Assembly: GCA_045639585.1 (NCBI GenBank) | Contig: JAZUDJ010000088.1 | Span: 562 to 64,561 of the forward strand | DNA length: 64,000 nt | DNA from: Bacteroidales bacterium | Lineage (GTDB): Bacteria > Bacteroidota > Bacteroidia > Bacteroidales > UBA3663 | Direction of reading: 5' to 3' | In this document: in pieces, positions 2 through 58,181 of the stretch | Layout: the number at the start of each line of letters is the position of its first letter | How positions within the stretch are numbered: the stretch's first letter is position 1 | Made by a program: the position numbers and the translations under genes | The notes under the pieces: model-generated | The model's database searches: none | The model's input: the letters and a program-made list of their open reading frames with translations, nothing else | Told to the model about the DNA's origin: nothing

Positions 2-241
2 GTACAGCAGGCCATGATCCAGCAGTACGAAGAGGCTGCCGCCTCGCTCCGCGCGCTTGGATCTCTGCCAAGCCTGCTCCAGCCAATGCAGGATACACTC
101 GATGCGATGAAGGAGATGCCTGTCGCCTCTCCTATCGAGACCGCCATCAGCCAGCTGAGCACCGACATCTTCTACGGCATGATCCTGATGATCCCGATCG
201 CATTCATCGTCCGCAAGAAGGGTGAGGAAAGTAATTTGTAA
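2..241 (+). CDS. 3' end of a CDS that starts upstream of the window; hypothetical protein with a C-terminal hydrophobic anchor
   Basis: The frame is open from base 2 and stops at TAA 239-241. The C-terminal hydrophobic stretch IFYGMILMIPIAFIV is followed by RKKGEE. No family recognised. Confidence 0.4.
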   Translation, partial: VQQAMIQQYEEAAASLRALGSLPSLLQPMQDTLDAMKEMPVASPIETAISQLSTDIFYGMILMIPIAFIVRKKGEESNL

Positions 242-258
242 TTCGTAATTTGTAATTG
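224..258 (+). repeat. heptamer array (GTAATTN variant), 5 units, across a stop/start junction
   Basis: GAGGAAA GTAATTT GTAATTC GTAATTT GTAATTG. TAA occurs at 232, 239, 246 and 253, which covers all three forward frames. The upstream CDS stops at 239-241 and the next ATG is at 264. Confidence 0.8.
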
Positions 259-263
259 TTCTT

Positions 264-3574: not shown

Positions 3575-3622
3575 CCCCTAGTATCCCTTAATATCCTTTA
3601 GATTCCCCTAGATATCCCTTAA
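3575..3622 (+). promoter_or_regulatory. tandem ~10-nt pyrimidine-rich repeats in the pyrB leader
   Basis: CCCCTAGTATCCCTTAA (3575-3591) and CCCCTAGATATCCCTTAA (3605-3622) flank TATCCTTTAGATT. Read as ~10-nt units: TATCCCTTAA / TATCCTTTAG / ATTCCCCTAG / ATATCCCTTAA. The array ends 10 nt before the pyrB ATG. Confidence 0.4.
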
Positions 3623-3632
3623 ATAAAATAAT

Positions 3633-6213: not shown

Positions 6214-7362
6214 TCAAGGGCGGAAAGAATTGACCCTCTTCACTACCTCTTCCACTTCTACATCCGCCAGCACGGGACTCATCGGCAGCGAGAGTTCCTG
6301 TGCACAAATCTGTTCTGTGATAAGCAACGACAGATGATGTAATTCCGGGTAACATTCCTGCTGATGAGGAGGTATCGGATAATGAATCTGCGTCTGGATT
6401 CCTTGCGAAGACAAATGCTGCTGCAAGGCGTCTCGATGGGTAGAAAGAACCGGGAAAATATGGTAGACAGAAGAGAGCGACATCTGCTCATACTTCTGCG
6501 AAGGAACAGCGACGAAGCTTTGCTCCATATTCTCATGATAGTATCGAGCGATTTCCTGACGTCGCTGGTTATCATCATCCAGATGGTGGAGCTTGACAGA
6601 AAGTATGGCCGCCTGCAGTTCATCTAATCGGCTATTGCGACCTTTATACTTGAACTCATATTTCTTATGGCTGCCATAGTTGGCCAACGCTCGGATGACC
6701 TCAGCCAACTCGGCATCATCCGTTGTTACCGCACCACCATCGCCTAAAGCTCCGAGGTTCTTGCTCGGATAGAAGCTGTGTGCAGCTGCATGGCCTAACG
6801 CCCCGGTCTTTCGGCAGCACCTCTCAGCACTCCGCACTCCACACTCCGCACTCCCAAGACCATGCGCCTGTGCATTGTCCTCCAGAACTAGCAGGCCATA
6901 TTTCTTAGCCAGTTCCCCAATTCTCTCAGTATAGGAGCATGCACCATAGAGATGCACCAACAGGATAGCTCGAGTGCGAGAACAGATGGACTGTTCTATC
7001 AGCGAGTCATCTATCTGCAGTGTATCGAGACGAGGCTCCACCAGCACCGGAGTCAATCCATTCTCTGAGATTGCCAGAATTGTCGCAATATACGTATTGG
7101 CAGGAACGATCACTTCATCTCCAGGAGCGATCTTTCCCAATTCCATATACGCTCGCAGCATGAGAATCAGTGCATCGAGACCACTAGCACAGGATATACA
7201 GTAACGGGTTCCGATGTATCGCGCATACTCCTCCTCGAAGCGTGTGCACTCCTCTCCAAGCAAATACCAACCTCGATCAATCACCCTGCGAGTTGCCTCA
7301 TGCAGTTCCTCGGCATAGCGTGCATTGATCTTCTGCAAATCCAGGAACTTAACCTCTCTCAC
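6214..7362 (-). CDS. DegT/DnrJ/EryC1/StrS-family sugar aminotransferase (PLP-dependent)
   Basis: Motifs EDNAQAHG and HSFYPSKNLGALGDGG (PLP-Lys region). GTG start at 7362-7360 overlaps the stop of the upstream GT4. A heptamer array sits between the two motifs. Confidence 0.9.
   Translation of the reverse strand: MREVKFLDLQKINARYAEELHEATRRVIDRGWYLLGEECTRFEEEYARYIGTRYCISCASGLDALILMLRAYMELGKIAPGDEVIVPANTYIATILAISENGLTPVLVEPRLDTLQIDDSLIEQSICSRTRAILLVHLYGACSYTERIGELAKKYGLLVLEDNAQAHGLGSAECGVRSAERCCRKTGALGHAAAHSFYPSKNLGALGDGGAVTTDDAELAEVIRALANYGSHKKYEFKYKGRNSRLDELQAAILSVKLHHLDDDNQRRQEIARYYHENMEQSFVAVPSQKYEQMSLSSVYHIFPVLSTHRDALQQHLSSQGIQTQIHYPIPPHQQECYPELHHLSLLITEQICAQELSLPMSPVLADVEVEEVVKRVNSFRP
6827..6854 (-). 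repeat. heptamer tandem array, 4 units, inside the DegT ORF (sense orientation)
   Basis: Plus strand GCACTCC GCACTCC ACACTCC GCACTCC. On the gene strand it is translated as SAECGVRSAE. Confidence 0.85.
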
Positions 7363-8584
7363 TAAGTACTTCTCTATAGAATTCGTAGAGTTTTTCTCTC
7401 ACAAATCCCTGCTCCCAACGCTCCGATATAATCTGACGAGCTCGCTTACCCATCTGCAGGCGCTCCTCCTCATGCTCCATCATCCAGCACATAGCCTCAT
7501 AAAGAGCATCAGCATCCTTCGATGGAACCATGACTCCATTCTCGCGGATACTCATTGTCTCCCCTGGCTGCAGATGCTGCGATACGTATTGTGAATCTAT
7601 CGCTTTAAGAATGATATCCCTGCATCCATTGATATCCGTCACGATCGATGCCAGCTCCATAGCACCAGCTTCGAGCACCGTATTCGGGAAACCTTCACGA
7701 TAGCTAGGGAATACGAAGCAATCAGCAGCGGCATAATATGCCAGCAGGTCTTCTATTGGTTTTGGACCTACCGCCTCAATCTCTGGCATCGTATCAATAA
7801 GGTGGCGTGTCTCTGGAGTAACGGGATCCAGATGATCCTCAATCCATCCGACCAGCACTAGACGACAACTTCTCCCTTCTCCCTTATTCTTTTTACTTTC
7901 AATAAGCTTGTTAAATGCAGCAACAAGCTCATTGATACCCTTATCGCCTACGATACGACCTACAAACAGAAACGTGAAGAGCTTTTTTCCATCAGGGGCA
8001 ATAGCTCCTAACTCCTCACTCCAAACTCCTACCATTTCTGGCTTTTGCCAGAATGAAAGATCTACTCCCTTCACATTACCATAGCCAAGAAGACGCATCG
8101 GCTTTTTGGTAATTCCGTAATTCTTCAGATCGTCGAGAACTCCGAGACTCTCAGGAATCACATGGGTGGCACAGGCGCAGGTTATTCTGTCGGTCATCAT
8201 CAGGATCTTACGCTTGATTCCTGATGTCGTTGGCCATATCAATCCTGTAAATGTATGAATACGATATGGAACTCTTGCCATCCATGCCGCCATCATACAC
8301 AGCAGACCAGCTTTCGGGGTCATGGAGTGCACCATATCCGGTTTCTCAGCGCGGAAGACACGATACAAAGCCCACAAGGCCTTCATATCCTTGACCAAAG
8401 AGATCTTTCTCTCCATCTCCACCCCGATGGTGCGGACATCCTCACGGGCAGCGACCTGCTTCAGATCCTCATCGGGTGAAGACACCGCTACTACCTCATA
8501 TCCTTGATCCTTCAAATCCTGTAAGATACCTTTACAGAAGATATTCAAGGATAGGCCGATCGTTGCACAACGTATAATTTTCAT
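7349..8584 (-). CDS. glycosyltransferase family 4
   Basis: FVFPSYREGFPNTVLEAGAMELASIVTDINGCRD (the E-x7-E region of the GT4/GT1 fold). Length 411 aa. Confidence 0.85.
   Translation of the reverse strand: MKIIRCATIGLSLNIFCKGILQDLKDQGYEVVAVSSPDEDLKQVAAREDVRTIGVEMERKISLVKDMKALWALYRVFRAEKPDMVHSMTPKAGLLCMMAAWMARVPYRIHTFTGLIWPTTSGIKRKILMMTDRITCACATHVIPESLGVLDDLKNYGITKKPMRLLGYGNVKGVDLSFWQKPEMVGVWSEELGAIAPDGKKLFTFLFVGRIVGDKGINELVAAFNKLIESKKNKGEGRSCRLVLVGWIEDHLDPVTPETRHLIDTMPEIEAVGPKPIEDLLAYYAAADCFVFPSYREGFPNTVLEAGAMELASIVTDINGCRDIILKAIDSQYVSQHLQPGETMSIRENGVMVPSKDADALYEAMCWMMEHEEERLQMGKRARQIISERWEQGFVREKLYEFYREVLSERG
8002..8029 (-). repeat. heptamer tandem array, 4 units, inside the GT4 ORF (sense)
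   Basis: Plus strand TAGCTCC TAACTCC TCACTCC AAACTCC. Translated as GVWSEELGA. Confidence 0.8.
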
Positions 8585-9237
8585 CCGAGTACGGTTTCAA
8601 GAATATACTTTATATCCAAAGACAGAGACTGATGGCGATAATACTCCAGATTGATTTTCACCTTATCCGGATAGATCACATAATCATTATACCACAGCGC
8701 AATCTCCTCATCGCTCATCGACGAGAACTCGACAGCAGGGCATTCACTCCTAACTCCTAATTCCTCACTCCTAACTTGATGAAGAAAATCTGCAATCAGA
8801 TTTTCCTCATCTCTGTACTTCAGCGTTGCCGGCCCCGTAATTCCAGGACGAAGCTCTAGCACCAATCGGTCCTCCCCGACCAACTTATCAGCATAGCCTG
8901 GGACATCCGGGCGCGGACCGACAAAACTCATGTCGCCGATAAAGACATTCCACAATTCAGGCAGTTCGTCGAGCTTATATTTGCGAAGCTTTGCGCCCAA
9001 TGGAGTGATACGCGCCTCTCCAGCCACACTCACGCTGCTACCGCCATGGCTCACAGTCATCGAGCGGAACTTATACATCGTGAACAGATCGCCATGCAGC
9101 CCCACTCTCTTCTGCTTGAAAATCGCAGGTCCTCCCGGCATCTTTACCTTTATTAATATAGCTACAACGATCAGCACCGGCCATAACAGCAGTAGCCCGA
9201 TCAGTGCCATCACTCTATCAAATATCCATTTACTCAT
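8581..9237 (-). CDS. small bacterial sugar transferase (PglC/WcfS-type polyprenyl-phosphate hexose-1-phosphate transferase), likely the initiating enzyme
   Basis: N-terminal re-entrant helix, then FTMYKFRSM and DELPELWNVFIGDMSFVGPRP. At 218 aa it is slightly longer than the ~200 aa I expect for this family, and it carries a heptamer array. Confidence 0.9.
   Translation of the reverse strand: MSKWIFDRVMALIGLLLLWPVLIVVAILIKVKMPGGPAIFKQKRVGLHGDLFTMYKFRSMTVSHGGSSVSVAGEARITPLGAKLRKYKLDELPELWNVFIGDMSFVGPRPDVPGYADKLVGEDRLVLELRPGITGPATLKYRDEENLIADFLHQVRSEELGVRSECPAVEFSSMSDEEIALWYNDYVIYPDKVKINLEYYRHQSLSLDIKYILETVLG
8744..8778 (-). repeat. heptamer tandem array, 5 units, inside the sugar-transferase ORF (sense)
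   Basis: Plus strand TCACTCC TAACTCC TAATTCC TCACTCC TAACTTG. Translated as VRSEELGVRSEC. Confidence 0.85.
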
Positions 9238-9260
9238 AGCCTAAGCGTTATCAGCAAAAT

Positions 9261-9274
9261 TCACTCCTCACTAA
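9261..9274 (-). repeat. two heptamer units forming the 3' end and stop codon of the GNAT gene
   Basis: Plus strand TCACTCC TCACTAA. On the gene strand this reads ...CTT AGT GAG GAG TGA (LSEE-stop). Confidence 0.5.
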
Positions 9275-9875
9275 GAGGCAGGTCCTCAATGAGCAGATCT
9301 CCATGCTCCAGTTCCTGCAATATCACCTGCTTCAGCACCGCCCCTGTCGACCGCATCGAAGCCATATTATTCTTATTAATAGACTCGAACATCCTGACTC
9401 CCAGTGTCACAGCCACATCCATCGCAGCCTTGCACATCATCTTGCCGATGCCCTGCCCCTGATGTGCATGATCCACCATCTTGCCAAGATAAGTCTGTCC
9501 ATGCACAAATGATCGCAAGAAGAAATATCCTACAATCTCCTTTTTATCACTTTCCTCATAAGCCTCCGCCACAAACATCATAAACGACGTCCTTTTCAGC
9601 AACACCTTGAGTGATTCGACATCAAATCCATGAGGTCTGAAGAACTCAAAATCCCCCTCCGGCTGTTTCGCAAAAAACTGAGCCAACGCCTCCGCATCCG
9701 CCACCACAGCCTCTCGCAGCAGTACCTTCTCCGTACTGTTCTTCGCCAGCACTCCAGCAATCTTCTTCAGTGATTTGCGATACCTGATCCCGAAAGCAGC
9801 AGAATTCATCCCCTCCGCCACTTCCCAGAGCCATCCCATGTGGTCGCGCAGTAAATGTGCAAGTTTATATAGCAT
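9261..9875 (-). CDS. GNAT-family N-acetyltransferase
   Basis: HAHQGQGIGKMM (the Q/RxxGxG/A acetyl-CoA loop). Lies between the aminotransferase/initiating-transferase genes and the GT genes. Confidence 0.8.
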   Translation of the reverse strand: MLYKLAHLLRDHMGWLWEVAEGMNSAAFGIRYRKSLKKIAGVLAKNSTEKVLLREAVVADAEALAQFFAKQPEGDFEFFRPHGFDVESLKVLLKRTSFMMFVAEAYEESDKKEIVGYFFLRSFVHGQTYLGKMVDHAHQGQGIGKMMCKAAMDVAVTLGVRMFESINKNNMASMRSTGAVLKQVILQELEHGDLLIEDLPLSEE

Positions 9876-9888
9876 AATAATCAGCTGT

Positions 9889-10704
9889 TCAAATACTCAT
9901 TACCTTGATCTGGAGTCCACGCTTCGCCAAAAAACGATTCGCCCACTTAAACAAGTAATAAGTCAAGTTCTTTTTCCTTGGTTTCTCCAACATTCTAAGG
10001 TCGAGACGACCTTGATTGAAAGGCGTCCATGAATGGAAATGGAAATGGATACAAACCACATCATCCATTCCCTCATACTTAGGAGAATCGAAAAATCTGG
10101 CAGGATAGACATGGATGTCCTCTCGAAGCACTTCCTCCTTCCCTACCTCCAGAATTGGACCTCGATATCCATAGTTCTCCGAAGCAATCAATGTCTGAAT
10201 AAATGGCATCGGACGCATATCCATCCGTAACGCCTCAGGAAGCGTTAAGTTCTCCGACCTCACAAAATGACGCTCTCGGTAATAATCGACACATTCTTTG
10301 AGGAACGGATGTCCTTTCTCTGCGCCAAAACAATGAGAAGTCAGCAAGTTGGCATGCTGGCAACATCCTTCCAGCAGAAACTCCTCAGCATGTTCCTTTC
10401 CGATGAACATACGATGATGAAGGAACGAATCGAACGATTTATAAACCGCCACATCACCATCCAACCAGATTCCTCCCTGAGTGTATACAGCATACACACG
10501 TATTGCATCAGCCGCAAATGCCCACTTTCGAGCTGCCGCAGCCTCCTTGGCAAAAAGCAGACCTGAAGCTTCGAGCGCTTCCCGGTCCCAGCATACAAAG
10601 GTATAATCCTTCAGATGCTCCTGCCAGGTAGCCATCATCTCCTTAAATGATGCCGGCATCTCTTCTCCAGAAAACCAGCTATAATGAATGATCTTTGGTA
10701 TCAT
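9889..10704 (-). CDS. GT32-like glycosyltransferase (DXD sugar-binding region)
   Basis: MIPKIIHYSWFSGEEMP and GGIWLDGDV. Clear paralogue of 47211-48029. Confidence 0.8.
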   Translation of the reverse strand: MIPKIIHYSWFSGEEMPASFKEMMATWQEHLKDYTFVCWDREALEASGLLFAKEAAAARKWAFAADAIRVYAVYTQGGIWLDGDVAVYKSFDSFLHHRMFIGKEHAEEFLLEGCCQHANLLTSHCFGAEKGHPFLKECVDYYRERHFVRSENLTLPEALRMDMRPMPFIQTLIASENYGYRGPILEVGKEEVLREDIHVYPARFFDSPKYEGMDDVVCIHFHFHSWTPFNQGRLDLRMLEKPRKKNLTYYLFKWANRFLAKRGLQIKVMSI

Positions 10705-10710
10705 ACGTAG

Positions 10711-11721: not shown

Positions 11722-11730
11722 CGGCAATTC

Positions 11731-11765
11731 TACCTTTTCACTATTAACTGTTAACTTTTATCTTA
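11731..11765 (-). repeat. degenerate heptamer array, 5 units, across a gene junction
   Basis: Plus strand TACCTTT TCACTAT TAACTGT TAACTTT TATCTTA. On the gene strand it supplies the C-terminus KIKVNS and three consecutive in-frame stops, TAA TAG TGA (11746-11738). Confidence 0.6.
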
Positions 11766-12880
11766 AGCGCATACCCTGGAATGCTTCTATATTCCTCCGA
11801 ATGCACAAATCGCCATGCATCCACCAATCCCTGCACAAAATAGATCGGTATCCTCAAATCAAGCAGCAGGACGCCAGCAATAATATTGACCAGCAGCAAC
11901 CACACACATTTCAGCACGAAAGCTGTAACAAGAGCGGCTTGAGACGAAGAATTTACTCCAAACTCCTCACTCTTCGAGCCCTCAGCTAAAGCTTCGTCTT
12001 CTCGCCAAGAGCATAAAAATGCTCTTGCTATTGGCTGCGAGGACCTCACTCCTAACTTAATTCTGTACCATATTATCGCAGACATCAGCGACCTGATATA
12101 ATACTTCTTATGCGTATGATGATACACCGAGCTTGCCGTCTTCGCATTGAGGTAATTCACTCCTGCATCATAGTTGAGCATGAGCTTACCTCCATTGACG
12201 AAGCACTTGAATGATTCCACCAGGTCATCACCGTATGCGAACTCCGAGAGCCGGTCCATCCATAGCTCATCCTCCCAGTGGAGTGATAGGAGCGAAGACC
12301 TCTTCCACATCACACACGGGCCATCCAGTTTCTGCGTTGGCAAACATAATCCAGAATCACACTTCTTAGCATCCCGAATCTCTGCAATCTTTCGCTTTGA
12401 GAGATAGCTGAACGCTCCCGTGCGAGTCACCTTATACGCCCACTTAACATCATAATGAGGAGCCACCCAGTTGGTCAGGATAGCAAAAGTCTTCAGACCA
12501 AGACTCATATCCTGATCCTTGAAACAGTCGGCACCCATCGCATCCACATCATGCGCCACCAAGCTCTTGAGCAATCGCTCTGCCGTATCCGGAGCCAGCT
12601 CCACATCGTCATCGAGCAATAGCAGATAAGGCGATGTCAATTCATCGTATGGCAATGCACGCTGTGCCACCATGCCCTTCTTGACATAGCGATACTCCTC
12701 ACGACCGATTGTTCCGTCCACGAACTTCACGCCACATGTCTCCGCCACATATACGATCACCCTCTCCGGCTGTATCGTCTGGCGAGCAATGGACTCCAGC
12801 TCCTGTCTGAACTTTTCTCCTGCCGTACCAAGTGTACGTATCGCTATCGAATATTTAGGTATCAATTCCTCACACCTCAT
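11744..12880 (-). CDS. GT-A fold (GT2-like) glycosyltransferase with a C-terminal membrane segment
   Basis: YSIAIRTLGTAGEKF and LLLLDDDVEL. Paralogue of 17871-18836 but 32 codons longer near the C-terminus. Confidence 0.7.
   Translation of the reverse strand: MRCEELIPKYSIAIRTLGTAGEKFRQELESIARQTIQPERVIVYVAETCGVKFVDGTIGREEYRYVKKGMVAQRALPYDELTSPYLLLLDDDVELAPDTAERLLKSLVAHDVDAMGADCFKDQDMSLGLKTFAILTNWVAPHYDVKWAYKVTRTGAFSYLSKRKIAEIRDAKKCDSGLCLPTQKLDGPCVMWKRSSLLSLHWEDELWMDRLSEFAYGDDLVESFKCFVNGGKLMLNYDAGVNYLNAKTASSVYHHTHKKYYIRSLMSAIIWYRIKLGVRSSQPIARAFLCSWREDEALAEGSKSEEFGVNSSSQAALVTAFVLKCVWLLLVNIIAGVLLLDLRIPIYFVQGLVDAWRFVHSEEYRSIPGYALKIKVNS
11953..12059 (-). repeat. composite insert: heptamer units at both ends plus a 9-bp hairpin
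   Basis: TTACTCC AAACTCC TCACTCT (11953-11973). Hairpin CAAGAGCAT-AAAA-ATGCTCTTG (12006-12027). TCACTCC TAACTTA (12046-12059). This corresponds to the extra peptide SQPIARAFLCSWREDEALAEGSKSEEFGVNSS that the paralogue lacks. Confidence 0.7.
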
Positions 12881-12897
12881 TCCTCGCTCCTAACTAT
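12863..12897 (-). repeat. heptamer array, 5 units, spanning a stop/start junction
   Basis: Plus strand CAATTCC TCACACC TCATTCC TCGCTCC TAACTAT. On the gene strand: AGT TAG GAGCGAGGA ATG AGG TGT GAG GAA TTG. The upstream stop, a 9-nt purine spacer and the downstream ATG all lie inside the array. Confidence 0.8.
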
Positions 12898-13591
12898 ATT
12901 GGGCCATCCCCAACATCTCCTGCACTCTGTGCCATACCTGTGTTATCTTGCTTCGATAGTACGCCATCTTCCCGTGAGGAGACTTCGTAAACCAATGGAT
13001 GCTGAACGTATTCTCCGTCTTCTTCAGCACTCCAGTCAGATCATTATACGGACACATCCAGTCTCGCGGCAGGATCTCCGCCTCCAGCACCTTTTGCCTC
13101 TCGCCATTAGTCTTTAGTCCATTGGCAAGCATGGCTTCCGTATTCAACTGCGGGCAACCCATGATCTCCGTCAAGTTCTCATACATTCCCAGCATCGCTT
13201 GCACAGCCGGATGATGAGCCGCAGCAGCAAAACCCAGACCCGTATTGATATACTCCTTAGTCTCCCAGCCAAACCAGGCCGACACCTCGTCCGACTCCAG
13301 CAGTTCCGTCGGTCTTCGCACCAGCTCTACATCCGTATCGAAGTAGAAACCACCTTCATGCTCCACCACGATCAGTCGTACCACATCGCTCAAATAGGCC
13401 CAACGCCTCTGCTCATACGCCATCTTGGCATACGGGTGGCAATTCACATCGAAGTTCTGCTCATTCCACTCCTTGATTTCAAAGTCTGGCAAGTACTTCT
13501 TCCAGCTCTCGATGCATTTCTTGGCCGATGCTGGTAACGGATTACCACCGAACCAACAATAATGTATTATCTTCGGAATCATCTGAAACAA
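12890..13591 (-). CDS. GT32-like glycosyltransferase (DXD sugar-binding region)
   Basis: MIPKIIHYCWFGGNPLP and FYFDTDVEL. Confidence 0.75.
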   Translation of the reverse strand: MFQMIPKIIHYCWFGGNPLPASAKKCIESWKKYLPDFEIKEWNEQNFDVNCHPYAKMAYEQRRWAYLSDVVRLIVVEHEGGFYFDTDVELVRRPTELLESDEVSAWFGWETKEYINTGLGFAAAAHHPAVQAMLGMYENLTEIMGCPQLNTEAMLANGLKTNGERQKVLEAEILPRDWMCPYNDLTGVLKKTENTFSIHWFTKSPHGKMAYYRSKITQVWHRVQEMLGMAQYS

Positions 13592-14250
13592 ATCGTAAAT
13601 AGGCTCTTGGCGTAGCTATCAGCCAGCAAATAGTAATATCGGACAAGAGACAAGTTGCTCCGGTTCATTCGGATCGCCGTCCTTCCCTGCCTGCGTCTCA
13701 ATAAATATTTCTCCTTATCATACTTCTCTGGTCTTCGATAGATAATCAGCGGTTCCTGCAGGAATCCGAAAGTCGAAATCTTTCGCGTCCTCGTCCACAG
13801 ATCCCAGTCCTCGCACCCATCGCACTCACTCCGGTAAGGATGCTCACGGAACCACTCCGTCCGTCCCATCACCGACGGATGGATGAACGTCCATTCTCCT
13901 GCTCCCGTGCCACACACATCCACCTCGGGATGCTCCTGCAGATACTTTACCTGTAATGCCAGTCGCTCCGGCAGCATCACATCATCTGCATCCATACGCG
14001 CGAAGTACTCTCCCCGCGCCATCGCCACCTGCTGGTTCAGTCGATAAGAAATACCATGATGTTCTCCATCAACCTGCAGAACAATTCGGTCATCCTTCAA
14101 ATACTCCTTAATGATTTCAACCGAACAGTCAGACGAACCATCATCAGTAATGAAGAGTTCCCAATCCTCATACGTCTGAGCCAGAACAGACTCAATTGCC
14201 TCTCCTATCCATTTCTCTGCATTATAAACCGGAAGACCAATTATAATCAT
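13579..14250 (-). CDS. glycosyltransferase family 2 (short form)
   Basis: IIGLPVYNAEKWI, ITDDGSSDCS and ARMDADDV. Confidence 0.8.
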   Translation of the reverse strand: MIIIGLPVYNAEKWIGEAIESVLAQTYEDWELFITDDGSSDCSVEIIKEYLKDDRIVLQVDGEHHGISYRLNQQVAMARGEYFARMDADDVMLPERLALQVKYLQEHPEVDVCGTGAGEWTFIHPSVMGRTEWFREHPYRSECDGCEDWDLWTRTRKISTFGFLQEPLIIYRRPEKYDKEKYLLRRRQGRTAIRMNRSNLSLVRYYYLLADSYAKSLFTICFR

Positions 14251-14301
14251 CAGAAATCTCTATCGGCAAGAAAAATTACAAAAATCGCTTAAAAGCATTT
14301 A

Positions 14302-14334: not shown

Positions 14335-15600
14335 TTACTCACACAGCTTATAGATCTTCTCGATCTCCGACTCATTGCCATAATCATGCTCTGACAGATA
14401 CTCAGTCAATGAGCTCAGCAACTTCTCATCCTTGATTACCTTAATCATCGCCTCAGCACACGCCTCACGCTCCAATGGCACAATCACTCCATCCACACCA
14501 TCCTGCACCTGCGACGGCGCCGTAGGATAATGCGTCACAATCACCGGCTTGCACAATATCTGCGCCTCCCTCACCGTAATGCTTTTCCCTTCATACCGCG
14601 AAGGCTGTACATAGATATCGCACGTACGGATATATGGATAAGGATTCGACTGCTTGCCAAGTAGAATCACGTGCTCCTCCATCCCTTCCTTGCGAATCTC
14701 ATCCCTCACCTGTTGCTCAATCTCAGGACTTCCGTAGCCGATAATGTACCACTTGACATTCCTACCTCCAAACTCTTCACTCTTACTTATGTCGTCGACC
14801 AATCGCCGACATAAGTAAGGAATGTCTTCCATCTTCTTAGCCTTCGAGTATCGTCCTATCGTCAAGAGCTTTAAATAATGATCCTGCTCAAATATAGGGC
14901 AAGACTCCTGACTTCTCTGACGAATAAAACGCGGAGATAGAATATTCTCGATATCAATAATCTTATTTTTCAAAGAAGGGAATACCTCCACGAACTTAGC
15001 CGATACATCAGGAGAAATAGAAGAGATCACATCCAGACGCTCCCACATGCGCAGCTCCATCTCCCGATTGATGAATACATTCGTATAGTCCGTGTGGATC
15101 CATCCAAGCTTCTTCTTCGCACGGACTTTATCCAGTACAATATAATGAGGTGTCAGAAACGAAATTGCCAGATCATATTCCACCTCAGGATTAATCTTCG
15201 GCAAACACTTCACAGTCCTATGCTGCTGAAACACAACATGCGCATTACTCTCCAGCCCCTTAACATTACGCTTCAGATATCTCTTATCCTCCCATCTACC
15301 CCAAAGTCGAGCAAGAGCCAGTCGCCAGTATCCTTTCTTTATCAGCAACGCTATCGGCTCTTCCAGCATCGCATAAGCCTCCACCTCCGGCAGCAATCTA
15401 AATCTAGGGACAATCTGGCATTCCTCACTCCTCACTCCACACTCCTCACTAATATAATGCATCAACTCCCCTCTATGCGCATAAATAAAAACATCCACCT
15501 CTGAACGAACAGGATCCACACTCTGCAGCAAGCCGAGAAGTGCCATCTCAGCACCACCCAGCTCCATATAATGCATCGCTATAAGAATCTTCGGCCTCAT
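14335..15600 (-). CDS. glycosyltransferase family 4
   Basis: IYVQPSRYEGKSITVREAQILCKPVIVT. Carries two repeat insertions (14763-14819 and 15418-15452). Confidence 0.8.
   Translation of the reverse strand: MRPKILIAMHYMELGGAEMALLGLLQSVDPVRSEVDVFIYAHRGELMHYISEECGVRSEECQIVPRFRLLPEVEAYAMLEEPIALLIKKGYWRLALARLWGRWEDKRYLKRNVKGLESNAHVVFQQHRTVKCLPKINPEVEYDLAISFLTPHYIVLDKVRAKKKLGWIHTDYTNVFINREMELRMWERLDVISSISPDVSAKFVEVFPSLKNKIIDIENILSPRFIRQRSQESCPIFEQDHYLKLLTIGRYSKAKKMEDIPYLCRRLVDDISKSEEFGGRNVKWYIIGYGSPEIEQQVRDEIRKEGMEEHVILLGKQSNPYPYIRTCDIYVQPSRYEGKSITVREAQILCKPVIVTHYPTAPSQVQDGVDGVIVPLEREACAEAMIKVIKDEKLLSSLTEYLSEHDYGNESEIEKIYKLCE
14763..14819 (-). repeat. heptamer units fused to a 13-bp perfect hairpin inside the GT4 ORF
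   Basis: TACCTCC AAACTCT TCACTCT (14763-14783). Hairpin CTTACTTATGTCG (14782-14794) / CGACATAAGTAAG (14807-14819). Translated as PYLCRRLVDDISKSEEFGGRN. Confidence 0.75.
15418..15452 (-). repeat. heptamer tandem array, 5 units, inside the GT4 ORF (sense)
   Basis: Plus strand GCATTCC TCACTCC TCACTCC ACACTCC TCACTAA. Translated as ISEECGVRSEEC. The reverse complement of 15427-15446 equals 23100-23119. Confidence 0.85.
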
Positions 15601-15636
15601 GGAATATTAGTTTTTCTTCGTTATGGGATTATTTAC

Positions 15637-15671
15637 GAACTCCTCACTCCTAGTTCCTCACTCTTCATTAA
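15637..15671 (-). repeat. heptamer tandem array, 5 units, filling an intergenic gap
   Basis: Plus strand GAACTCC TCACTCC TAGTTCC TCACTCT TCATTAA. The reverse complement of 15638-15667 matches 21994-22023 at 28/30. Confidence 0.85.
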
Positions 15672-21986: not shown

Positions 21987-21996
21987 TTTTTTGTGA

Positions 21997-22024
21997 AGAG
22001 TGAGGAATTAGGAGTGAGCAGTTA
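21997..22024 (+). repeat. heptamer tandem array, 4 units, at the 3' end of the VirE-like gene (antisense to it)
   Basis: AGAGTGA GGAATTA GGAGTGA GCAGTTA. The last TTA is the stop codon (reverse complement TAA) of 22022-24280. Confidence 0.85.
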
Positions 22025-24280
22025 TTCGACGCGAACCAAATATCTTTTGATACCATGAAGAATGCGGCATTCAAAACCCTGACGGCCAAGCGCAGCACCT
22101 AAGGCTCTGACATTCAGCTTTGCCGACGGATTGTAGTAATTGATTCGCGCTGCAATCTCCGCCGCAGTCATCCACTTGCTGTCGCTCAGCGGTTGGCCAT
22201 CCTCTCCAAGATTAGGTTGGTGTACATAGACACTGCACAGTTCCACCTCAACGCTCTGCGACACATACTGCTCATTGTGCTTGTCGAGCTGTCGGATGTC
22301 CTGCTGGCTCATCACAAACATCCCAGCCTCATGCTGCGCCAGATAGAGAGCTTGCGCGTAAATATGTTCGTAGTCGGGACGACACTCGAAAGGATTGACG
22401 GTAAAGCGACGCACCGTAAATGTCAGCCAGCGGCGGTTGCCTGTCGGGTCGGTCAGGAAGTCGGCGCGATTGCCCGTAGCGCAGAACGTAGCGATACGCG
22501 GCATGGTACGTGGCGACTTGTCGTATGGCAAACGTTCGCGGATCACATCGAGCGTGACGAGAGACTTGAGTTGATTGACCTCCACCTCGCTCATCGCATC
22601 GATCTCCTCCAGGTTAATCAATCCGCACTCGGCCAGCTGGATGCGGTCGTCCTTGTCGAGGTTGCGGAAGCGCATCTGCTCCTTATAATAAGCGCGAAGC
22701 TCCGGTGGCATCAGCATACGCATCCACGAGGACTTGCCTATGCCCTGCGCACCGATGAAAGTCAGGATTGTGCCATGGGTGCTCGACATGTGAATCCAGC
22801 CGTGCACCATCGCCACCATCCAGCGCTTGAAGAAGTCGTCGAGCAAGGCGCGCGTCTCCTCGCCACCCTCCACCTCCACCGTCTGGATCAGCTCGTGAAG
22901 GTAGTCCTTATCACCAGGCTTCCACAATCCTTGCAACGGCTGCAGATACGCTATAATAGGATTGTAGGGCAATGAGCAGGTGTCACTCTGAAGGACATTA
23001 TACACGTCGGTCGATGTGGTGGTCAATGCAGTTTCCTCAAAGAACAGGCGCATCAAGGTGGCGACATCCGAGTCGTGCAACTCGTAATAGTGTGGAATTA
23101 GGAGTGTGGAGTGAGGAGTTTTTCCACTCTCGCACAAAGATCCGACCAAAGCCAATGACGACAGGTTACGCTGAGCGTATTGAGCCATTTGCGAGCCTTC
23201 ATTCCACTCGACCTCCAGTCGGTGAGAGATCATATTCTTGCGATACGTTCCCTGACTCAGCAAAAACGCCTCGATGTCAGCCGACGTGGCGCGATGCACC
23301 TTCTTCTCGCTGTTTTTCTGCTGGTTAGGCAATCGAAGTGTACCGAACTCTGCCTGCTTCGACTCGTAAATGCTCTTCACCACGCTCGTGATACCACGCT
23401 CTCCGTCACCATAATAGAAGTAGCGCTCCTTAGCCTCAGCCAGCGCCTCTTCCTGCTCGATGCCATAGCGATTGACCTCATAAATGACGGTGCTAAGGAA
23501 CTTGTTCAACGTGCCATGCTTCGCCTCAAATCCTTGCGTCTTGGCAAAGGCCTCAGCGGCATCAAAGGCTCTGGACAGCTGCGTCTTGACAGGTCGTCCC
23601 ACCGGATTGCCCGTCGCCATATGGGCCTTGCTCTGCTCAAAGTCGAGCAAAGCCTGGCTTAAGATAACGGTATAGGGCTGATAGTTATCCTTAAAATACT
23701 TAGCCTCAGGATCGTATGCCATAGCACTCGGTCGCGCTGCATCCTTACACTGCGTATCGACACGGAGATCCTTCAGCGTCGGAGCATTCGAGAACCACTC
23801 CTCAAACTGGCGGCGCACATCCTCCCAGATGGCATTCCACAGCAGGCGTGAGCGCTGACTCTTCTTCGGATCACGGAAGTCGAGCTCCGCCAAGTCCATC
23901 GGCTGCATATCGTGATAGCACACCTGATAGGCCACGATGACGTGCAGGCCCTTGCCGCTCAACGACCGGTGATAGCCAACGACATGCATCAGCATACCGA
24001 GGTAAGCGACCATGTATTCCATCTGCTTCTCATCCAGATGGTCATAGTCGAAGTAAAGCAATCCAGTGAGCTGCTTGATATTCTCCGTCTTCCTGCCACC
24101 CTCCATGATGGCCGACGGTACGAACACCGGCACGCGCTGCTTTTGCCCCACTCCCTGACGGTGCATCTCTGTCTGCATCCGCAAGTCCTGATCCGTCTTT
24201 ATTTTCGTAAAGACGTCGCCCAGCGACACTATCTGCGGGGGGGTAGACAGTAGATTATTGAAAGTTGAAACGGTTTCCAA
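22022..24280 (-). CDS. VirE-like P-loop NTPase with an N-terminal primase-like (VirE_N/BT4734-like) region
   Basis: Walker A FIGAQGIGKSSW. 752 aa with a large N-terminal domain. TTG start at 24280, 9 nt after the HTH gene stop. The family call comes from remembered architecture, not a search. Confidence 0.75.
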   Translation of the reverse strand: METVSTFNNLLSTPPQIVSLGDVFTKIKTDQDLRMQTEMHRQGVGQKQRVPVFVPSAIMEGGRKTENIKQLTGLLYFDYDHLDEKQMEYMVAYLGMLMHVVGYHRSLSGKGLHVIVAYQVCYHDMQPMDLAELDFRDPKKSQRSRLLWNAIWEDVRRQFEEWFSNAPTLKDLRVDTQCKDAARPSAMAYDPEAKYFKDNYQPYTVILSQALLDFEQSKAHMATGNPVGRPVKTQLSRAFDAAEAFAKTQGFEAKHGTLNKFLSTVIYEVNRYGIEQEEALAEAKERYFYYGDGERGITSVVKSIYESKQAEFGTLRLPNQQKNSEKKVHRATSADIEAFLLSQGTYRKNMISHRLEVEWNEGSQMAQYAQRNLSSLALVGSLCESGKTPHSTLLIPHYYELHDSDVATLMRLFFEETALTTTSTDVYNVLQSDTCSLPYNPIIAYLQPLQGLWKPGDKDYLHELIQTVEVEGGEETRALLDDFFKRWMVAMVHGWIHMSSTHGTILTFIGAQGIGKSSWMRMLMPPELRAYYKEQMRFRNLDKDDRIQLAECGLINLEEIDAMSEVEVNQLKSLVTLDVIRERLPYDKSPRTMPRIATFCATGNRADFLTDPTGNRRWLTFTVRRFTVNPFECRPDYEHIYAQALYLAQHEAGMFVMSQQDIRQLDKHNEQYVSQSVEVELCSVYVHQPNLGEDGQPLSDSKWMTAAEIAARINYYNPSAKLNVRALGAALGRQGFECRILHGIKRYLVRVE
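23094..23121 (+). repeat. heptamer tandem array, 4 units, inside the VirE-like ORF (antisense orientation)
   Basis: GGAATTA GGAGTGT GGAGTGA GGAGTTT. Read on the gene strand as KTPHSTLLIP. Confidence 0.85.
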
Positions 24281-38645: not shown

Positions 38646-39488
38646 CTATACGGTATCCATAAAGTTGCGCTCGGTATGAGAAAAGACAATGACGCTTAGG
38701 AAGAGGCCGACAAACATGAAGATGGTGCTGTAGAGGAGTCCTCCCCAATCAAGAGTGCCACATCCGAGGCTGGAGTATTTGAAAGCCTCGAAAATAGGAG
38801 TCAAAGGATTTAGGGCAATGATTTCGCGATACTTCTCTGGAGCGGCGCTCAGTGGATAGATGACTGGGGTGGCATACATGAATAGCTGGATGCCAAACTG
38901 AATGAGAAACTTGAGGTCGCGATACTTTGTGGTCAGCGAGGAGATGATCAGACCCCAGCTCATAGAATGGAGAGCGAGCAATACCACTAAAAGTGGGAGA
39001 ATGAGGAGTGAGGAATGAGGAGTAAGGAATTGACCTGCTTGGGTAAAGAACTTGAAATAGAGATATACCATTATGAAGAGGACGAGCTGAATGAGCATCT
39101 TCAGCAGGTTGCTCGTAGCAATGCTGAGGGGCACCACCAAACGTGGGAAATAGACCTTACCAAACACGTTGGCATTAGCAGAGAAGATATCAGAGCAAAG
39201 GGTGAAGGTCTCACTGAAATAATTCCAGAGCAAGATGCCAGCCATGTAAAAAAGTGGTTGAGGTGCCCCATCGGTACTGATGCCGGCTAGTCCACCAAAC
39301 ACAAACATGTACATAATGGTGGTAAAGACGGGCTGGATGACATACCATAACGGTCCAAGGATAGTCTGCTTGTACTTGGTGACGATATCACGCTTGACAT
39401 ACATGACATAAAGGTCGCGATAGCGCCATAAACCTTTGATATCAATATCCAATAGGCCTCGACGTGGGGTGATTACATGTTCCTGCAT
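38646..39488 (-). CDS. wzm: ABC-2 type polysaccharide exporter permease (Wzm/TagG/KpsM-like)
   Basis: 280 aa with six hydrophobic helices and an ABC-2 pattern (KYKQTILGPLWYVIQP). The ATPase partner lies 8.5 kb upstream at 48037-49317. Confidence 0.8.
   Translation of the reverse strand: MQEHVITPRRGLLDIDIKGLWRYRDLYVMYVKRDIVTKYKQTILGPLWYVIQPVFTTIMYMFVFGGLAGISTDGAPQPLFYMAGILLWNYFSETFTLCSDIFSANANVFGKVYFPRLVVPLSIATSNLLKMLIQLVLFIMVYLYFKFFTQAGQFLTPHSSLLILPLLVVLLALHSMSWGLIISSLTTKYRDLKFLIQFGIQLFMYATPVIYPLSAAPEKYREIIALNPLTPIFEAFKYSSLGCGTLDWGGLLYSTIFMFVGLFLSVIVFSHTERNFMDTV
38998..39032 (+). repeat. heptamer tandem array, 5 units, inside the wzm ORF (antisense orientation)
   Basis: AGAATGA GGAGTGA GGAATGA GGAGTAA GGAATTG. 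Read on the gene strand as FLTPHSSLLIL. Confidence 0.85.
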
Positions 39489-51812: not shown

Positions 51813-51854
51813 ATAAGGATAATTACGAATTACAAAACTCTGGTTACAAATTAT
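51813..51854 (-). repeat. heptamer array (GTAATTN variant), 6 units, filling the wza-wzc gap
   Basis: Plus strand ATAAGGA TAATTAC GAATTAC AAAACTC TGGTTAC AAATTAT. The reverse complement of 51821-51836 equals 235-250 (TTTGTAATTCGTAATT). Confidence 0.8.
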
Positions 51855-55157: not shown

Positions 55158-56585
55158 TTATGCTTTCCTCTTCAGCTGCTCGATAGAAGCCGCGATCTTC
55201 TCCAACTGCTGTGGGATGCGGATGTTCTGAGGGCAGTGAGGTGAACACTGGTTACAGTTGATACAGTGATCGGCCTGACGGAGCGTAGGGATGGCGCGAT
55301 TGTAGCTGATGAGATAGTTACGACGGAGCTCACTGTAGTTAGCATCCTCCTCGCCACCAGGGAGCACACCTTCATTGACACATTTATTATAATGTACGAA
55401 GATACCCGGGATGTCGAGGCCGTAAGGACATGGCATGCAGTACTTACAGTCGTTACATGGGATGAGCGGATATTTGATCAGCTGCTTGGCTGCACCCTCG
55501 AGGTAATCGAGCTCCTCCTGTGTCAGTGGCACGAGAGGAGAGAAGCTGCGGAGGTTGTCCTGCAGGTGCTCCATGTAGGTCATACCCGACAGGGCGCTGA
55601 GTACGCGTGGATAGGTACCGCAGAAACGGAAGGCCCATGAAGCAGCACTCATCTCTGGCAGACGCGCCTTGAGGTGAGCGATGACGTGGTTTGGCAGGTT
55701 GCTGAGTCGGCCGCCGAGCAATGGTTCCATGATGACAACAGGGATCTCGCGCTTGTCGAGTTCATCGTAGAGCCATTCGGCATTGATGCTTCGGCCCTCC
55801 TGCTTATCACCGTTGTTCCAGTCAAGGTAGTTCATCTGGATCTGCACGAAGTCCCAGTGATACTTACCCTCATCGTGCCACTTAAGCATGGTCTCAAAGA
55901 CTTCAGCCTCGCCATGGAAAGAGAAGCCGAGGTTGCGGATGACGCCTTTCTGCTTCTGCTCGACGAGCCAGTCGAGGATGCCATTGTCCATGTAGCGACG
56001 GTTGAAGTTGGCCATACCGCCACCGCCGATGCTGTGCAGAAGGAGGTAGTCGATATAGTCGGTCTGCAGGTACTTGAGCGAATTGCGCAACATCTCCTGC
56101 GAAGCCTCACGGGTCTGCTGCTGGACAGCGAAGTTTGAGAGCTTGGTTGCAATATAATATGACTCACGTGGACGGCCGGTAGCCTTCAAGGCGATACCGA
56201 CAGAACGCTCAGAGAAGCCCTTGAGGTAAGCAGGGCTCGTATCGTAATAGTTAACACCATGATCCATGGCGTATTTGATCAGTTCGTTGATCTTCTCCTG
56301 GTCGAGGTCATTGCCATCAGGGCCTTTCTGGCCATCGGTACGCTGAGGAAAGCGCATACAGCCATAGCCGAGGATACTTACCTTATCACCATTGGCAGGA
56401 TTGACACGGTAGGTCATCTCACCCAACTGGTCTTCGCTGAATGGTCCACCCTTAGGATTGAAGTCGCCCTCCTCTGATGGTTTAGGGGCAGAGATGCACG
56501 ATGGCAAAGTGGCAGCGGCAGCAACGGCAGCCGAACCCATGCCAAGGCGCTGTAGGAACTCGCGACGATTGATTATCTTTTTCAT
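55158..56585 (-). CDS. Tat-signal aldo/keto reductase with a C-terminal 4Fe-4S domain
   Basis: MKKIINRREFLQRLGMGSAAVAAAA twin-arginine signal, an AKR core (GVNYYDTSPAYLKG), and C-terminal CNDCKYCMPCP and CINCNQCSPHCP. Confidence 0.8.
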   Translation of the reverse strand: MKKIINRREFLQRLGMGSAAVAAAATLPSCISAPKPSEEGDFNPKGGPFSEDQLGEMTYRVNPANGDKVSILGYGCMRFPQRTDGQKGPDGNDLDQEKINELIKYAMDHGVNYYDTSPAYLKGFSERSVGIALKATGRPRESYYIATKLSNFAVQQQTREASQEMLRNSLKYLQTDYIDYLLLHSIGGGGMANFNRRYMDNGILDWLVEQKQKGVIRNLGFSFHGEAEVFETMLKWHDEGKYHWDFVQIQMNYLDWNNGDKQEGRSINAEWLYDELDKREIPVVIMEPLLGGRLSNLPNHVIAHLKARLPEMSAASWAFRFCGTYPRVLSALSGMTYMEHLQDNLRSFSPLVPLTQEELDYLEGAAKQLIKYPLIPCNDCKYCMPCPYGLDIPGIFVHYNKCVNEGVLPGGEEDANYSELRRNYLISYNRAIPTLRQADHCINCNQCSPHCPQNIRIPQQLEKIAASIEQLKRKA

Positions 56586-56639
56586 TGTTTTTCTAAGAGA
56601 ATTTAAGAGATCACAAAGGACTCTAAAAGACACTAAGGG

Positions 56640-58181
56640 TTAAATCTCACGCTGGGTATCGACACCCTCTACATAGATAGCAGAGAATGGACGCGATGGA
56701 CAGAGATTCTCACAGGCACCACAACCGATGCACTTCTCCTCGTCGACCACAGGAATCTTGGCAGACTTAGGATCCTCAGCATCGACTGGAACCATCTGGA
56801 TGGCGTTCTGAGGACAGCGACGAGCACAGAGACCACAGTTGACGCCATCATTGAGAACGACACAATTGTCCTTGATCCAGTGAGCGGTACCAATCTTGGT
56901 GCTGGCCTTGACAGCCTGACGCTCCTCGGCATCGCCCTTGAACTTGATGATCGCACCAGCTGGACAGACATCCGAGCAGCGGGTACACTCTGGACGACAA
57001 TAGCCATGCTCATAGCTGACCTCTGGCACCATCATGTGCAACAAGTCGCTGCTAGGACGAAGCACACCATTAGGACACTCGCTGACACAGAGCTGGCAAC
57101 CCGTACAATGCTGCTGGAGATGCTTGAGGCTGATAGCGCCTGGAGGGCAGATGGTGTTCTTGCGCTCTGGAACCTGCTTGTCGAGGATGGTAGCAAAGCC
57201 GCCATCGGTAGTCTTCTCCTGCGCCTTGATAGCGGTAGCGCCAAGGACAGCTGCGGTGGCGGTCAGGAAGGCGCGGCGAGAAGGCTCCTTGCTCTCTGAG
57301 TTAGGAGTCTGGAGTGGGGAGTTAGGAGTATTTGTCTTCTTGGCGATTGAGTAAGTCAATGCACCATGATTACAGGTATCGAGACAGTCGAAGCAATCGA
57401 CACAGCGTGAACCATCGACGGTGTGATTCTTGAAGTCGATAGCTGCACCCTTACACTTACGAGCGCAGAGACCACAGTTCTTACACTTATCAGCATCGAT
57501 CTGCACACGGAAGAGGCTGCGACGTGAGAGAAAACCGAGCAAGGTACCTACTGGACAGATGTTATTGCAATAAGCACGACCTCCTACCCAAGCCATGATA
57601 GCCACGATAAGGAAGGTGCAGCCAGCCAGGATGGTGAGAGGCAGTGAGCGTTGCCATATGTCGATCGTATAATACTGGAACGATCCAACCGATTCAGCCT
57701 TAGCAGCCAGGACGTTATTGCCCATCTCATAGAGTGGCTTGAGCAGCATGGTGACCATACGACCGAATGAGCTGTAAGGAGCAAGCAGCTGTACGAAGAA
57801 GCCGAAGCCTGCGAGCAATGAGACGACAAAGAGGGCAAAGACAACGATACGTGCCAGCTGATGCCACTTGGTGTCATCGTAAGAGAAGCGTCCGAACTTG
57901 CGCTTGTTCTTGTTGAGATTCAACTTGCCAGCAATCCACGAGATGGCATCCTGCAAGATACCCAATGGACAGATGACGGAGCAATAGATGCGGCCGAAGA
58001 GCCAGGTGATGACCAATAAGGCCACGACCACCACCCAGTTGAGCGCCAGGATCGATGGCAAGAGCTGTAACTTAGCCATCCAGCCTAACATGGACTGTGC
58101 TGTACCCGTGAAGTCAAGGAACAGCCAGGTGAGACCCAACAAAAAGATGAGGGCCACGATGCGGCGTGTCAGTTTTAACAT
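56640..58181 (-). CDS. membrane polyferredoxin (NapH-like N-terminal half plus multi-4Fe-4S C-terminal half)
   Basis: GRIYCSVICPLG, GRAYCNNICPVG, CKNCGLCARKC, CTGCQLCVSECP, CGLCARRCP and CIGCGACENLCP. An internal SRRAFLTATAAVLGATA motif follows a heptamer-encoded linker. Confidence 0.8.
   Translation of the reverse strand: MLKLTRRIVALIFLLGLTWLFLDFTGTAQSMLGWMAKLQLLPSILALNWVVVVALLVITWLFGRIYCSVICPLGILQDAISWIAGKLNLNKNKRKFGRFSYDDTKWHQLARIVVFALFVVSLLAGFGFFVQLLAPYSSFGRMVTMLLKPLYEMGNNVLAAKAESVGSFQYYTIDIWQRSLPLTILAGCTFLIVAIMAWVGGRAYCNNICPVGTLLGFLSRRSLFRVQIDADKCKNCGLCARKCKGAAIDFKNHTVDGSRCVDCFDCLDTCNHGALTYSIAKKTNTPNSPLQTPNSESKEPSRRAFLTATAAVLGATAIKAQEKTTDGGFATILDKQVPERKNTICPPGAISLKHLQQHCTGCQLCVSECPNGVLRPSSDLLHMMVPEVSYEHGYCRPECTRCSDVCPAGAIIKFKGDAEERQAVKASTKIGTAHWIKDNCVVLNDGVNCGLCARRCPQNAIQMVPVDAEDPKSAKIPVVDEEKCIGCGACENLCPSRPFSAIYVEGVDTQREI
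57297..57331 (+). repeat. heptamer tandem array, 5 units, inside the polyferredoxin ORF (antisense orientation)
   Basis: TGAGTTA GGAGTCT GGAGTGG GGAGTTA GGAGTAT. Read on the gene strand as NTPNSPLQTPNSE. Confidence 0.85.

Follow-up and report, generated by a model that had tools for sequence, protein, structure and literature searches.

The window analysed here is a stretch of 64,000 nt from a Bacteroidales bacterium (assembly GCA_045639585.1, contig JAZUDJ010000088.1, positions 562 to 64,561). It holds Bacteroidales-type surface-polysaccharide loci, for the most part on the minus strand, and at 21–24 kb a Fic/VapE-like insert. Short tandem arrays of a degenerate 7-nt unit are scattered through these genes and the gaps between them. 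An earlier reading of the letters alone (the original prediction) had described them as a dispersed DNA-level family of at least 17 copies. We find this family to be genuine. It is a new family of the known heptanucleotide-repeat class (the STRR, short tandemly repeated repetitive sequence, or TAACTGA kind), not a new kind of element. For comparison we used a syntenic locus (L001), a locus from another genome (L242) and a further locus whose orthologous sites were compared likewise (L243); the relatives of the window locus are Bacteroidales metagenome-assembled genomes.

The array family

The units are contiguous, head-to-tail and 7 nt long (GGAGTGA, GGAGTTA, GGAATTA, GGAATGA), and can be written as GGARTKA, whose reverse complement TMAYTCC reads as a module, TMAYT, followed by a 2-nt spacer. 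They are imperfect, with at most two to three identical neighbours. On recount, 7-nt-periodic arrays were found in all 17 predicted intervals and on the predicted strands. The long strings reported as shared between copies were likewise reproduced: positions 23100–23119 equal the reverse complement of 15427–15446 (20/20), 21998–22015 that of 8753–8770 (18/18) and 235–250 that of 51821–51836 (16/16), while 21994–22023 matches the reverse complement of 15638–15667 at 28/30.

The density of arrays is far above that of shuffled controls, a comparison that had been proposed with the original prediction. Scanning for (GGARTKA)x3 with up to three mismatches gives 11 arrays in the window against 0.04 expected from 100 dinucleotide shuffles, and allowing up to four gives 12 against 0.56 expected from composition-preserving block shuffles; the latter scan of the 64-kb window finds no copy beyond those predicted. 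A consensus-free test of periodicity (s[i]=s[i+p], periods 4–15) returns eight periodic regions at period 7 and zero to three at any other period. Period 7 is also foremost in three syntenic loci, where further GGARTKA-family arrays are present, and Tandem Repeats Finder lists the window arrays independently with a period of 7.

Twelve of the 17 arrays are robust. Those at 9261, 12046 and 11731 consist of two units or are degenerate, and are credible through context alone, because each has an orthologous array in L243 or flanks a nested insertion. The arrays at 224 and 51813 form a separate AT-rich subfamily, GTAATTY (TAATT+NG). The strand labels of the original prediction stand in general, except that a 'G-rich' orientation is doubtful for these two, because GTAATTY is nearer to the C-rich than to the G-rich strand of the family. 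The count of 17 separate arrays also needs adjusting, as 11953 and 12046 are really the two halves of one array, separated by a 72-nt insertion nested in it. Copies had further been placed inside at least nine unrelated open reading frames (ORFs). This holds for DegT, GT4, Bac_transf, GNAT (at its C-terminus), a GT2-like ORF, GT1, the VapE-like gene, the ABC-2 permease and the 4Fe-4S protein; the copy at 21997, assigned to a Fic ORF, is more likely to precede the true start of Fic. All features are listed in Table 1.

Table 1. Heptanucleotide arrays of the window and the insertion nested in one of them.
Feature	Position	Strand	Remarks
Leader-type array, TAATT+NG subfamily	224..258	+	GTAATTT GTAATTC GTAATTT GTAATTG; holds TAA stop of upstream DUF4199-like ORF; 5 nt before ATG 264 of GT2 gene
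In-frame sense array, DegT aminotransferase	6827..6854	-	Peptide GSAECGVRSA
In-frame sense array, GT4 glycosyltransferase	8002..8029	-	Peptide GVWSEELGAI; between two Pfam domains
In-frame sense array, Bac_transf sugar transferase	8744..8778	-	QVRSEELGVRSE; within hypervariable insertion
Two-unit array, GNAT gene end	9261..9274	-	Gives last codons LSEE and TGA stop; next ATG 24 nt on; weak alone
Degenerate A-rich array	11731..11765	-	C-terminal residues KIKVNS and stop of ORF 11744..12880; just ahead of next gene start
Right half of split in-frame array, GT2-like ORF 11744..12880	11953..11973	-	KSEEFGVN; downstream of nested 72-nt insertion
Nested 72-nt insertion, 24 codons	11972..12043	-	Hairpin CAAGAGCAT/ATGCTCTTG; splits array
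Left half of split array, GT2-like ORF	12046..12059	-	IKLGVR
Junction array	12863..12897	-	TAG stop of ORF 12890..13591; ATG and first codons MRCEEL of ORF 11744..12880
In-frame sense array, GT1 glycosyltransferase	14756..14783	-	SKSEEFGGRN
Second in-frame sense array, GT1 glycosyltransferase	15418..15452	-	SEECGVRSEEC
Intergenic array, gap between EpsG-like gene and GT1	15630..15671	-	G-rich strand sense; 36 nt before ATG 15600
Array at VapE-like gene end	21990..22024	+	C-rich strand sense; supplies VapE-like TAA stop; ~160 nt upstream of probable Fic start
In-frame array, VapE-like protein, C-rich strand read	23087..23121	+	KTPHSTLLIPH; linker between BT4734-like and VapE domains
In-frame array, ABC-2 polysaccharide-export permease, C-rich strand read	38998..39032	+	QFLTPHSSLLIL
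Leader-type array	51813..51854	-	ATAATTT GTAACCA GAGTTTT GTAATTC GTAATTA TCCTTAT; holds upstream ORF stop; abuts ATG 51812 of 832-aa ORF
In-frame array, 4Fe-4S cluster protein linker, C-rich strand read	57297..57331	+	NTPNSPLQTPNS

Coding copies and variation among relatives

With the G-rich strand as sense, eight listed arrays are in frame in six genes (DegT, GT4, Bac_transf, GNAT, and two each in the GT2-like and GT1 genes) and encode SEE[L/C/F]GVR-type peptides. With the C-rich strand as sense, three are in frame (VapE-like gene, ABC-2 permease and 4Fe-4S protein), giving peptides such as TPHSTLLIPH. Codon choice inside the arrays departs from that elsewhere in the same genes: serine is AGT in 11/11 cases (15% elsewhere), arginine AGG in 5/6 (15%), leucine TTA in 3/4 (7%) and glycine GGA in 8/9 (38%). 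Because they occur in both orientations, in intergenic and junction DNA, and with such biased codons, the arrays are DNA-level and not protein-level entities. Protein-level selection for a heptad peptide is ruled out by the codon identity, the two orientations and the non-coding copies.

Since 7 is 1 modulo 3, successive units are read in three phases. In the sense arrays, the phase due to read TKA is TTA, TGT, TGC or TTT, and the phase due to read KAG is GAG; the imperfection of the units is largely the signature of stop-codon removal in sense copies. Furthermore, the intragenic copies are confined to disordered loops, inter-domain linkers and termini. Aligned with PDB 7n63_A, the DegT array falls exactly on a 10-residue gap, and in the AlphaFold model of DegT (mean predicted local distance difference test score, pLDDT, 84.9) the array region, residues 168–184, is the sole long stretch with pLDDT below 50. 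The ABC-2 permease shows a 7-residue gap relative to TarG (6jbh_C) at the array position, and the GT4 and VapE-like copies fall between Pfam domains.

Orthologous sites differ in array length and sequence. The GT1 orthologues of the window and L001, 87% identical, carry arrays at the same two sites. At 14756..14783 the window array is exactly 21 nt (three units) shorter than that of L001, and at 15418..15452 L001 is longer by 27 nt, which is not a whole number of units. The junction array at 12863 is kept in L001 with four substitutions. At the 224 site, L243 has a variant array and L001 none. In L243, moreover, the arrays of the DegT, GT4 and Bac_transf sites are A-rich variants, the 9261 site has a degenerate heptamer run and the 11731 site GTTAACA-type units; in the window, the plus strand of 11731..11765 holds TAACTGT/TAACT modules, with 11738–11756 reading TCACTAT TAACTGT TAACT. 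Some Bac_transf homologues at 75–77% identity lack the whole insert, and others have variant arrays. For the array at 15630, no orthologous segment was found in L001, L242 or L243. We also considered arrays as joints of cassette recombination and rejected this, the array at the EpsG|GT1 junction being present in the window and in neither L001 nor L243.

Among 120 homologues, the DegT loop may contain a sense array, an antisense array, an array of another heptamer, or none. The other heptamers (AACTCTC, GAAAATK, AGTTCAA and CGTTCCT) were deduced from period-7 peptides (NSQLSTLNSQL, IENGKLKIEN, SSKFKVQSS and SSFLVPRSSF). Between two DegT genes of about 90% identity there is a clean 45-nt difference, a block that holds five TMACTCC units, and the empty site of the pair contains no heptamer seed. 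Further array sites in DegT homologues lie near residues ~275 and ~306. These comparisons show change by whole units, by blocks and by point mutation. Three close DegT homologues (P0209, P0234 and P0237) are ~500 aa long and carry extra PF04480 and PF18741 domains fused to the aminotransferase.

The insertion at 11972–12043 is in frame and forms a 9-bp hairpin. Its 72-nt core is also nested in the DegT-loop array of L242 (10550–10621), with 70 of 72 positions identical, so that the two copies lie in unrelated genes of two genomes, both inside arrays; the orthologous site in L001 and L243 lacks it. Searches with the core found no match in Joint Genome Institute (JGI) metagenomes and no further copy in 3.3 Mb of other loci. 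A word-indexed protein search with the encoded peptide gave no candidate, and an exhaustive search of representatives gave one weak match for the insertion. Features recalling a miniature inverted-repeat transposable element (MITE) are seen only in this insertion, namely the hairpin and a weak terminal symmetry. It could be either a tiny element that targets arrays or intervening DNA moved by array-mediated gene conversion, and it recalls small elements that nest in other repeats.

Relation to known heptanucleotide repeats

The original prediction held that the arrays match no named repeat class. This is incorrect, because a class of dispersed tandem heptanucleotide repeats is already established; it includes STRR of Calothrix and Nostoc, GGGAATC, GGGGAYT and TAACTGA, and the window arrays show its traits, with 7-nt head-to-tail units, dispersed arrays far above chance and length change by whole units (21 nt). 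Rfam 15 yields no match at gathering score anywhere in the window. The narrower exclusions of the original prediction survive. Repetitive extragenic palindromic sequences and bacterial interspersed mosaic elements (REP/BIME) do not fit: there is no palindrome, and the minimum free energy of three GGARTKA arrays is 0 kcal/mol whichever strand is folded, while shuffled sequences fold at least as well as the two GTAATTY arrays (-0.8 and -2.0 kcal/mol). Clustered regularly interspaced short palindromic repeats (CRISPR) have identical 24–48-nt repeats with unique spacers, whereas the units here are 7 nt and contiguous. A MITE bounded by terminal inverted repeats (TIRs) is excluded as well, since TIRs are absent and information content is zero beyond both array ends. 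In the searchable literature, GGARTKA units are nowhere described as a bacterial repeat, and no heptamer repeats are tied to Prevotella or Bacteroidales.

STRR heptanucleotide repeats, with the units CCCCAGT, TTGGTCA and CAACAGT, were reportedly described by Mazel and colleagues in 1990 (cited in PMC4692102) from heterocystous cyanobacteria, as intergenic repeats of cyanobacteria. They can sit inside functional genes, as in the case of RNase P RNA. Like the window arrays, they are short tandem 7-nt arrays in many dispersed copies, with no palindrome and a spread mechanism that is not known; unlike them, the window arrays are found in a Bacteroidales host and mostly in frame within protein-coding genes. 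The classic STRR1–3 of Calothrix are rejected as the family proper, both because the units do not match and because the relatives are Bacteroidales. Rickettsia palindromic elements and cyanobacterial small dispersed repeats also insert in frame in genes and are tolerated in surface regions, but they are 20–150 nt long and unique or palindromic, not tandem heptamers.

TAACTGA direct repeats are known from Beggiatoaceae, cyanobacteria and five Bacteroidetes (MacGregor, 2015; PMC4679880). They resemble the window arrays in having two to six heptamer units, unstructured RNA, indels in 7-nt steps, a patchy cross-phylum spread and no evident vector. The TAACT module is common to TAACTGA and the TAACTCC of the window, the spacer being CC (or CG/TG) here and GA there. 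Forward TAACTGA copies lie right next to start codons and have a stop codon in every frame (PMC4679880); this placement is seen at 224 and 51813 and not in most window copies. Intragenic TAACTGA copies are rare and peripheral (PMC4679880), whereas here at least eight genes have mid-protein copies, mostly read from the G-rich strand. We do not assign the arrays to the TAACTGA family proper, as the closest units are TAACTCC, TCACTCC, TAATTCC and TAATTCG, with one TAACTGT only.

Two other described heptamer repeats, GGGAATC of Xanthomonas and GGGGAYT of Nostoc (Rehm et al., 2015; PMC4692102), are likewise G-rich and heterogeneous, and vary much in length and sequence at the same site between close relatives. 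They differ from the window arrays in their G3–4 tracts, their G-quadruplexes and their intergenic position; the window units have GG only and no predicted quadruplex. According to work cited there, heptamers are over-represented among bacterial simple-sequence repeats (SSRs), and a link between slippage and the active site of the polymerase has been put forward (PMC4692102).

GGARTKA units are not confined to Prevotella or Bacteroidales: Nostoc, Clostridiales, Planctomycetes, Acidobacteria and others have them too. Exact (GGARTKA)x3 gave at least 120 matches in viral contigs and at least 120 in one-genome-per-species contigs. The hosts among the matches listed are Nostoc, Calothrix, Rivularia, many Bacteroidales, Clostridiales, Selenomonadaceae, Planctomycetes, Acidobacteria, Anaerolineae, Verrucomicrobia and Proteobacteria, with GGAGTTA arrays abundant in contigs of the first three genera. 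In 2 Mb of matched loci, again among the matches listed, period-7 arrays number 328 and 296, whereas no other period exceeds 40. With scrambled units, 56 and 59 stretches were obtained from viral contigs, one of these units partly overlapping the GGARTKA family, compared to at least 120 for the real unit; for five-unit arrays in viral contigs the counts are 18 scrambled and 32 real. Heptamer arrays are generic. Outside the window, the GGARTKA arrays are mostly intergenic or at gene junctions. A peak at five units was considered as a sign of a defined-size module and discarded, three exact plus two partial end units being the smallest detectable class. In three loci (L237, L172 and L125) single arrays switch unit, for example ACAGTGA x5 followed by GGAGTTA x4, or GGAGTGA x4 followed by GGAGATA x10, which shows that heptamer families interconvert or abut.

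Origin and possible roles

We hypothesize, with a probability of roughly 60%, that the arrays are slippage-prone heptanucleotide SSR DNA filtered by selection, the start-proximal copies having a possible leader role. Units would be gained and lost by replication slippage, for which 7-nt units have been proposed in the literature to be favoured. In addition, whole blocks of array would be copied from one site to another, possibly via array–array recombination; block copying is suggested because the 72-nt insertion is nested in arrays of two unrelated genes. Genic copies survive only if their length keeps the frame and their stop codons are mutated away, and only if the resulting hydrophilic heptad (SEE[L/C/F]GVR, or SLLTPHS on the opposite strand) falls in a disordered loop, inter-domain linker or terminus. 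In close relatives an equivalent site may hold an array or lack it, and the same tolerant protein loops are occupied repeatedly, in one orientation or the other. The majority of intragenic copies are probably without function, and the TAATT-NN arrays at 224 and 51813 may serve as unstructured AU-rich leaders.

Several observations weigh against this explanation. Fourteen clusters of Bac_transf at 97–99% identity are all 218 aa long, which implies that slippage is slow at imperfect arrays and that these are not hypermutable on short timescales. Pure slippage in situ is insufficient, because the array-less DegT loop offers no heptamer seed. Eight of the 12 robust arrays lie within 9 kb of one locus (6.8–15.7 kb), which neutral scatter does not explain. 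GGARTKA is about 2–4 times commoner than scrambled units in viral contigs, a modest sequence specificity. Finally, among 405 arrays elsewhere, 79 have the ATG of a long ORF within 30 nt downstream when read on the C-rich strand and 38 when read on the G-rich strand, although the gene calls behind this count are crude. This C-rich excess hints at a function for part of the family, and the placement matches that of the 224 and 51813 arrays.

Such placement is one argument for a different reading, which we consider unlikely: that the arrays are cis-acting RNA elements, unstructured repeats that recruit single-strand RNA binders (ribosomal protein S1 or cold-shock proteins) or keep leaders open, tuning translation initiation or coupling in a host that has no need of Shine-Dalgarno pairing. 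The 0 kcal/mol folds of GGARTKA arrays on both strands agree with this, as does the position of the arrays at 224 and 51813, which end 5 and 0 nt before ATGs. Those at 9261, 11731, 12863 and 15630 precede starts by no more than ~40 nt, but the gaps within these operons are short enough to put any intergenic array close to a start. TAACTGA repeats are placed alike, and S1, Csp and CsrA have been proposed as their partners (PMC4679880); deletion of heptamer repeats altered recO reporter activity in Nostoc (bioRxiv 10.1101/2022.06.06.494920). However, most window copies are mid-gene, and their G-rich sense is not the start-proximal orientation; the 79 versus 38 count carries the uncertainty of its gene calls; and no specific binding protein is named for the window arrays.

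A broader version is improbable in our view. In it, TMAYT-NN arrays (TAACTCC, TAATTCC, TAACTGA and relatives) would be one cross-phylum system with a trans-acting partner, either a protein that binds single-stranded nucleic acid at translation starts, each domain reading one 7-nt unit, or an enzyme that writes arrays into DNA, and the many in-frame copies in polysaccharide genes of Bacteroidales would be a by-product.

It is still less probable that the arrays are a true mobile element, inserted by dedicated machinery such as a transposase, a recombinase or a template-copying polymerase. The presence or absence of blocks without a local seed, the two orientations at one loop, the 72-nt passenger moved between arrays, and the same units in many phyla and in viral contigs would all suit such an element. 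Against it, there are no conserved flanks or target motif (information content is zero outside the array), and neither TIRs nor target-site duplications (TSDs). We noticed no gene associated with the arrays in these loci, although no systematic search was made for one. The scrambled heptamers that also form arrays are a better fit to a generic mutational process.

Phase-variable contingency loci, in which gain or loss of a 7-nt unit would frameshift glycosyltransferases off and on and so vary the capsule, are very improbable. Seven is not a multiple of 3, several glycosyltransferase genes of the surface-polysaccharide locus carry arrays, and arrays change by units over evolutionary time. Nevertheless, the units are imperfect, with no more than two or three identical neighbours, the 14 near-identical Bac_transf clusters and two DegT variants at 95% identity keep their length, orthologue length differences are multiples of 3, and copies also occur in non-surface genes and intergenic DNA; we rejected a contingency SSR on these grounds. 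Regulation of transcription or translation by G-quadruplexes of the G-rich strand can practically be dismissed: typical arrays do have four GG tracts with 5-nt loops, and there is a precedent proposed for Xanthomonas GGGAATC (PMC4692102), but ViennaRNA with G-quadruplex energies predicts none (0 kcal/mol, against -8.4 kcal/mol for GGGAAUC x4), the apparent modal array length is an ascertainment effect, and AT-rich members (GGAATTA, GTAATTY) and A-rich orthologous variants lose the G tracts.

Significance and setting of the locus

What is unusual here is the density of in-frame arrays, in either orientation, within real polysaccharide-biosynthesis genes. Little is known of the origin or role of heptanucleotide repeats, and this locus with its syntenic relatives is an unusually clean natural experiment, in which the same enzyme loops carry a sense, an antisense, another heptamer or no repeat, and the coding copies reveal exactly how a stop-rich repeat is turned by selection into a peptide that the protein tolerates. 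Were the process frequent, it would generate loop insertions as well as new termini, stops and starts in the capsule and O-antigen enzymes of gut Bacteroidales; should a system with a trans-acting partner be real, its in-frame copies would keep supplying capsule enzymes with new surface loops. That arrays in many phyla lie before start codons in a particular orientation offers a testable lead on Shine-Dalgarno-independent initiation. On the practical side, the arrays are a nuisance for gene calling, assembly and homology inference.

Other features of the window were noted alongside the arrays. The segment 21028–24934, between two polysaccharide loci, contains a Fic-domain gene, a VapE/primase-like gene (a BT4734-like N domain and a VapE domain), a small ORF and two arrays, and looks like the remnant of an integrated mobile element. 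From 8000 to 16000 the GC skew of the plus strand is -0.22 to -0.30, that is, the coding strand is strongly G-rich. This skew is much stronger than in the other minus-strand gene blocks of the window and coincides with the array-dense region. The blocks 16000–20000 and 25000–38000 have 34–40% GC, compared to 48–54% elsewhere, and hold none of the 17 arrays; the GC mosaic of the polysaccharide loci suggests imported gene cassettes.

Two repeats of other periods were also seen. At 41932–41978, the junction of two minus-strand ORFs holds a purine-rich repeat with a 21-nt period and 2.2 copies, with no clear relation to the heptamer family. Directly upstream of the pyrB start at 3633, positions 3575–3625 on the plus strand carry a pyrimidine-rich repeat of ~10-nt period (CCCCTAGATAT-like, ~4 copies), which is possibly a pyrimidine-responsive leader.

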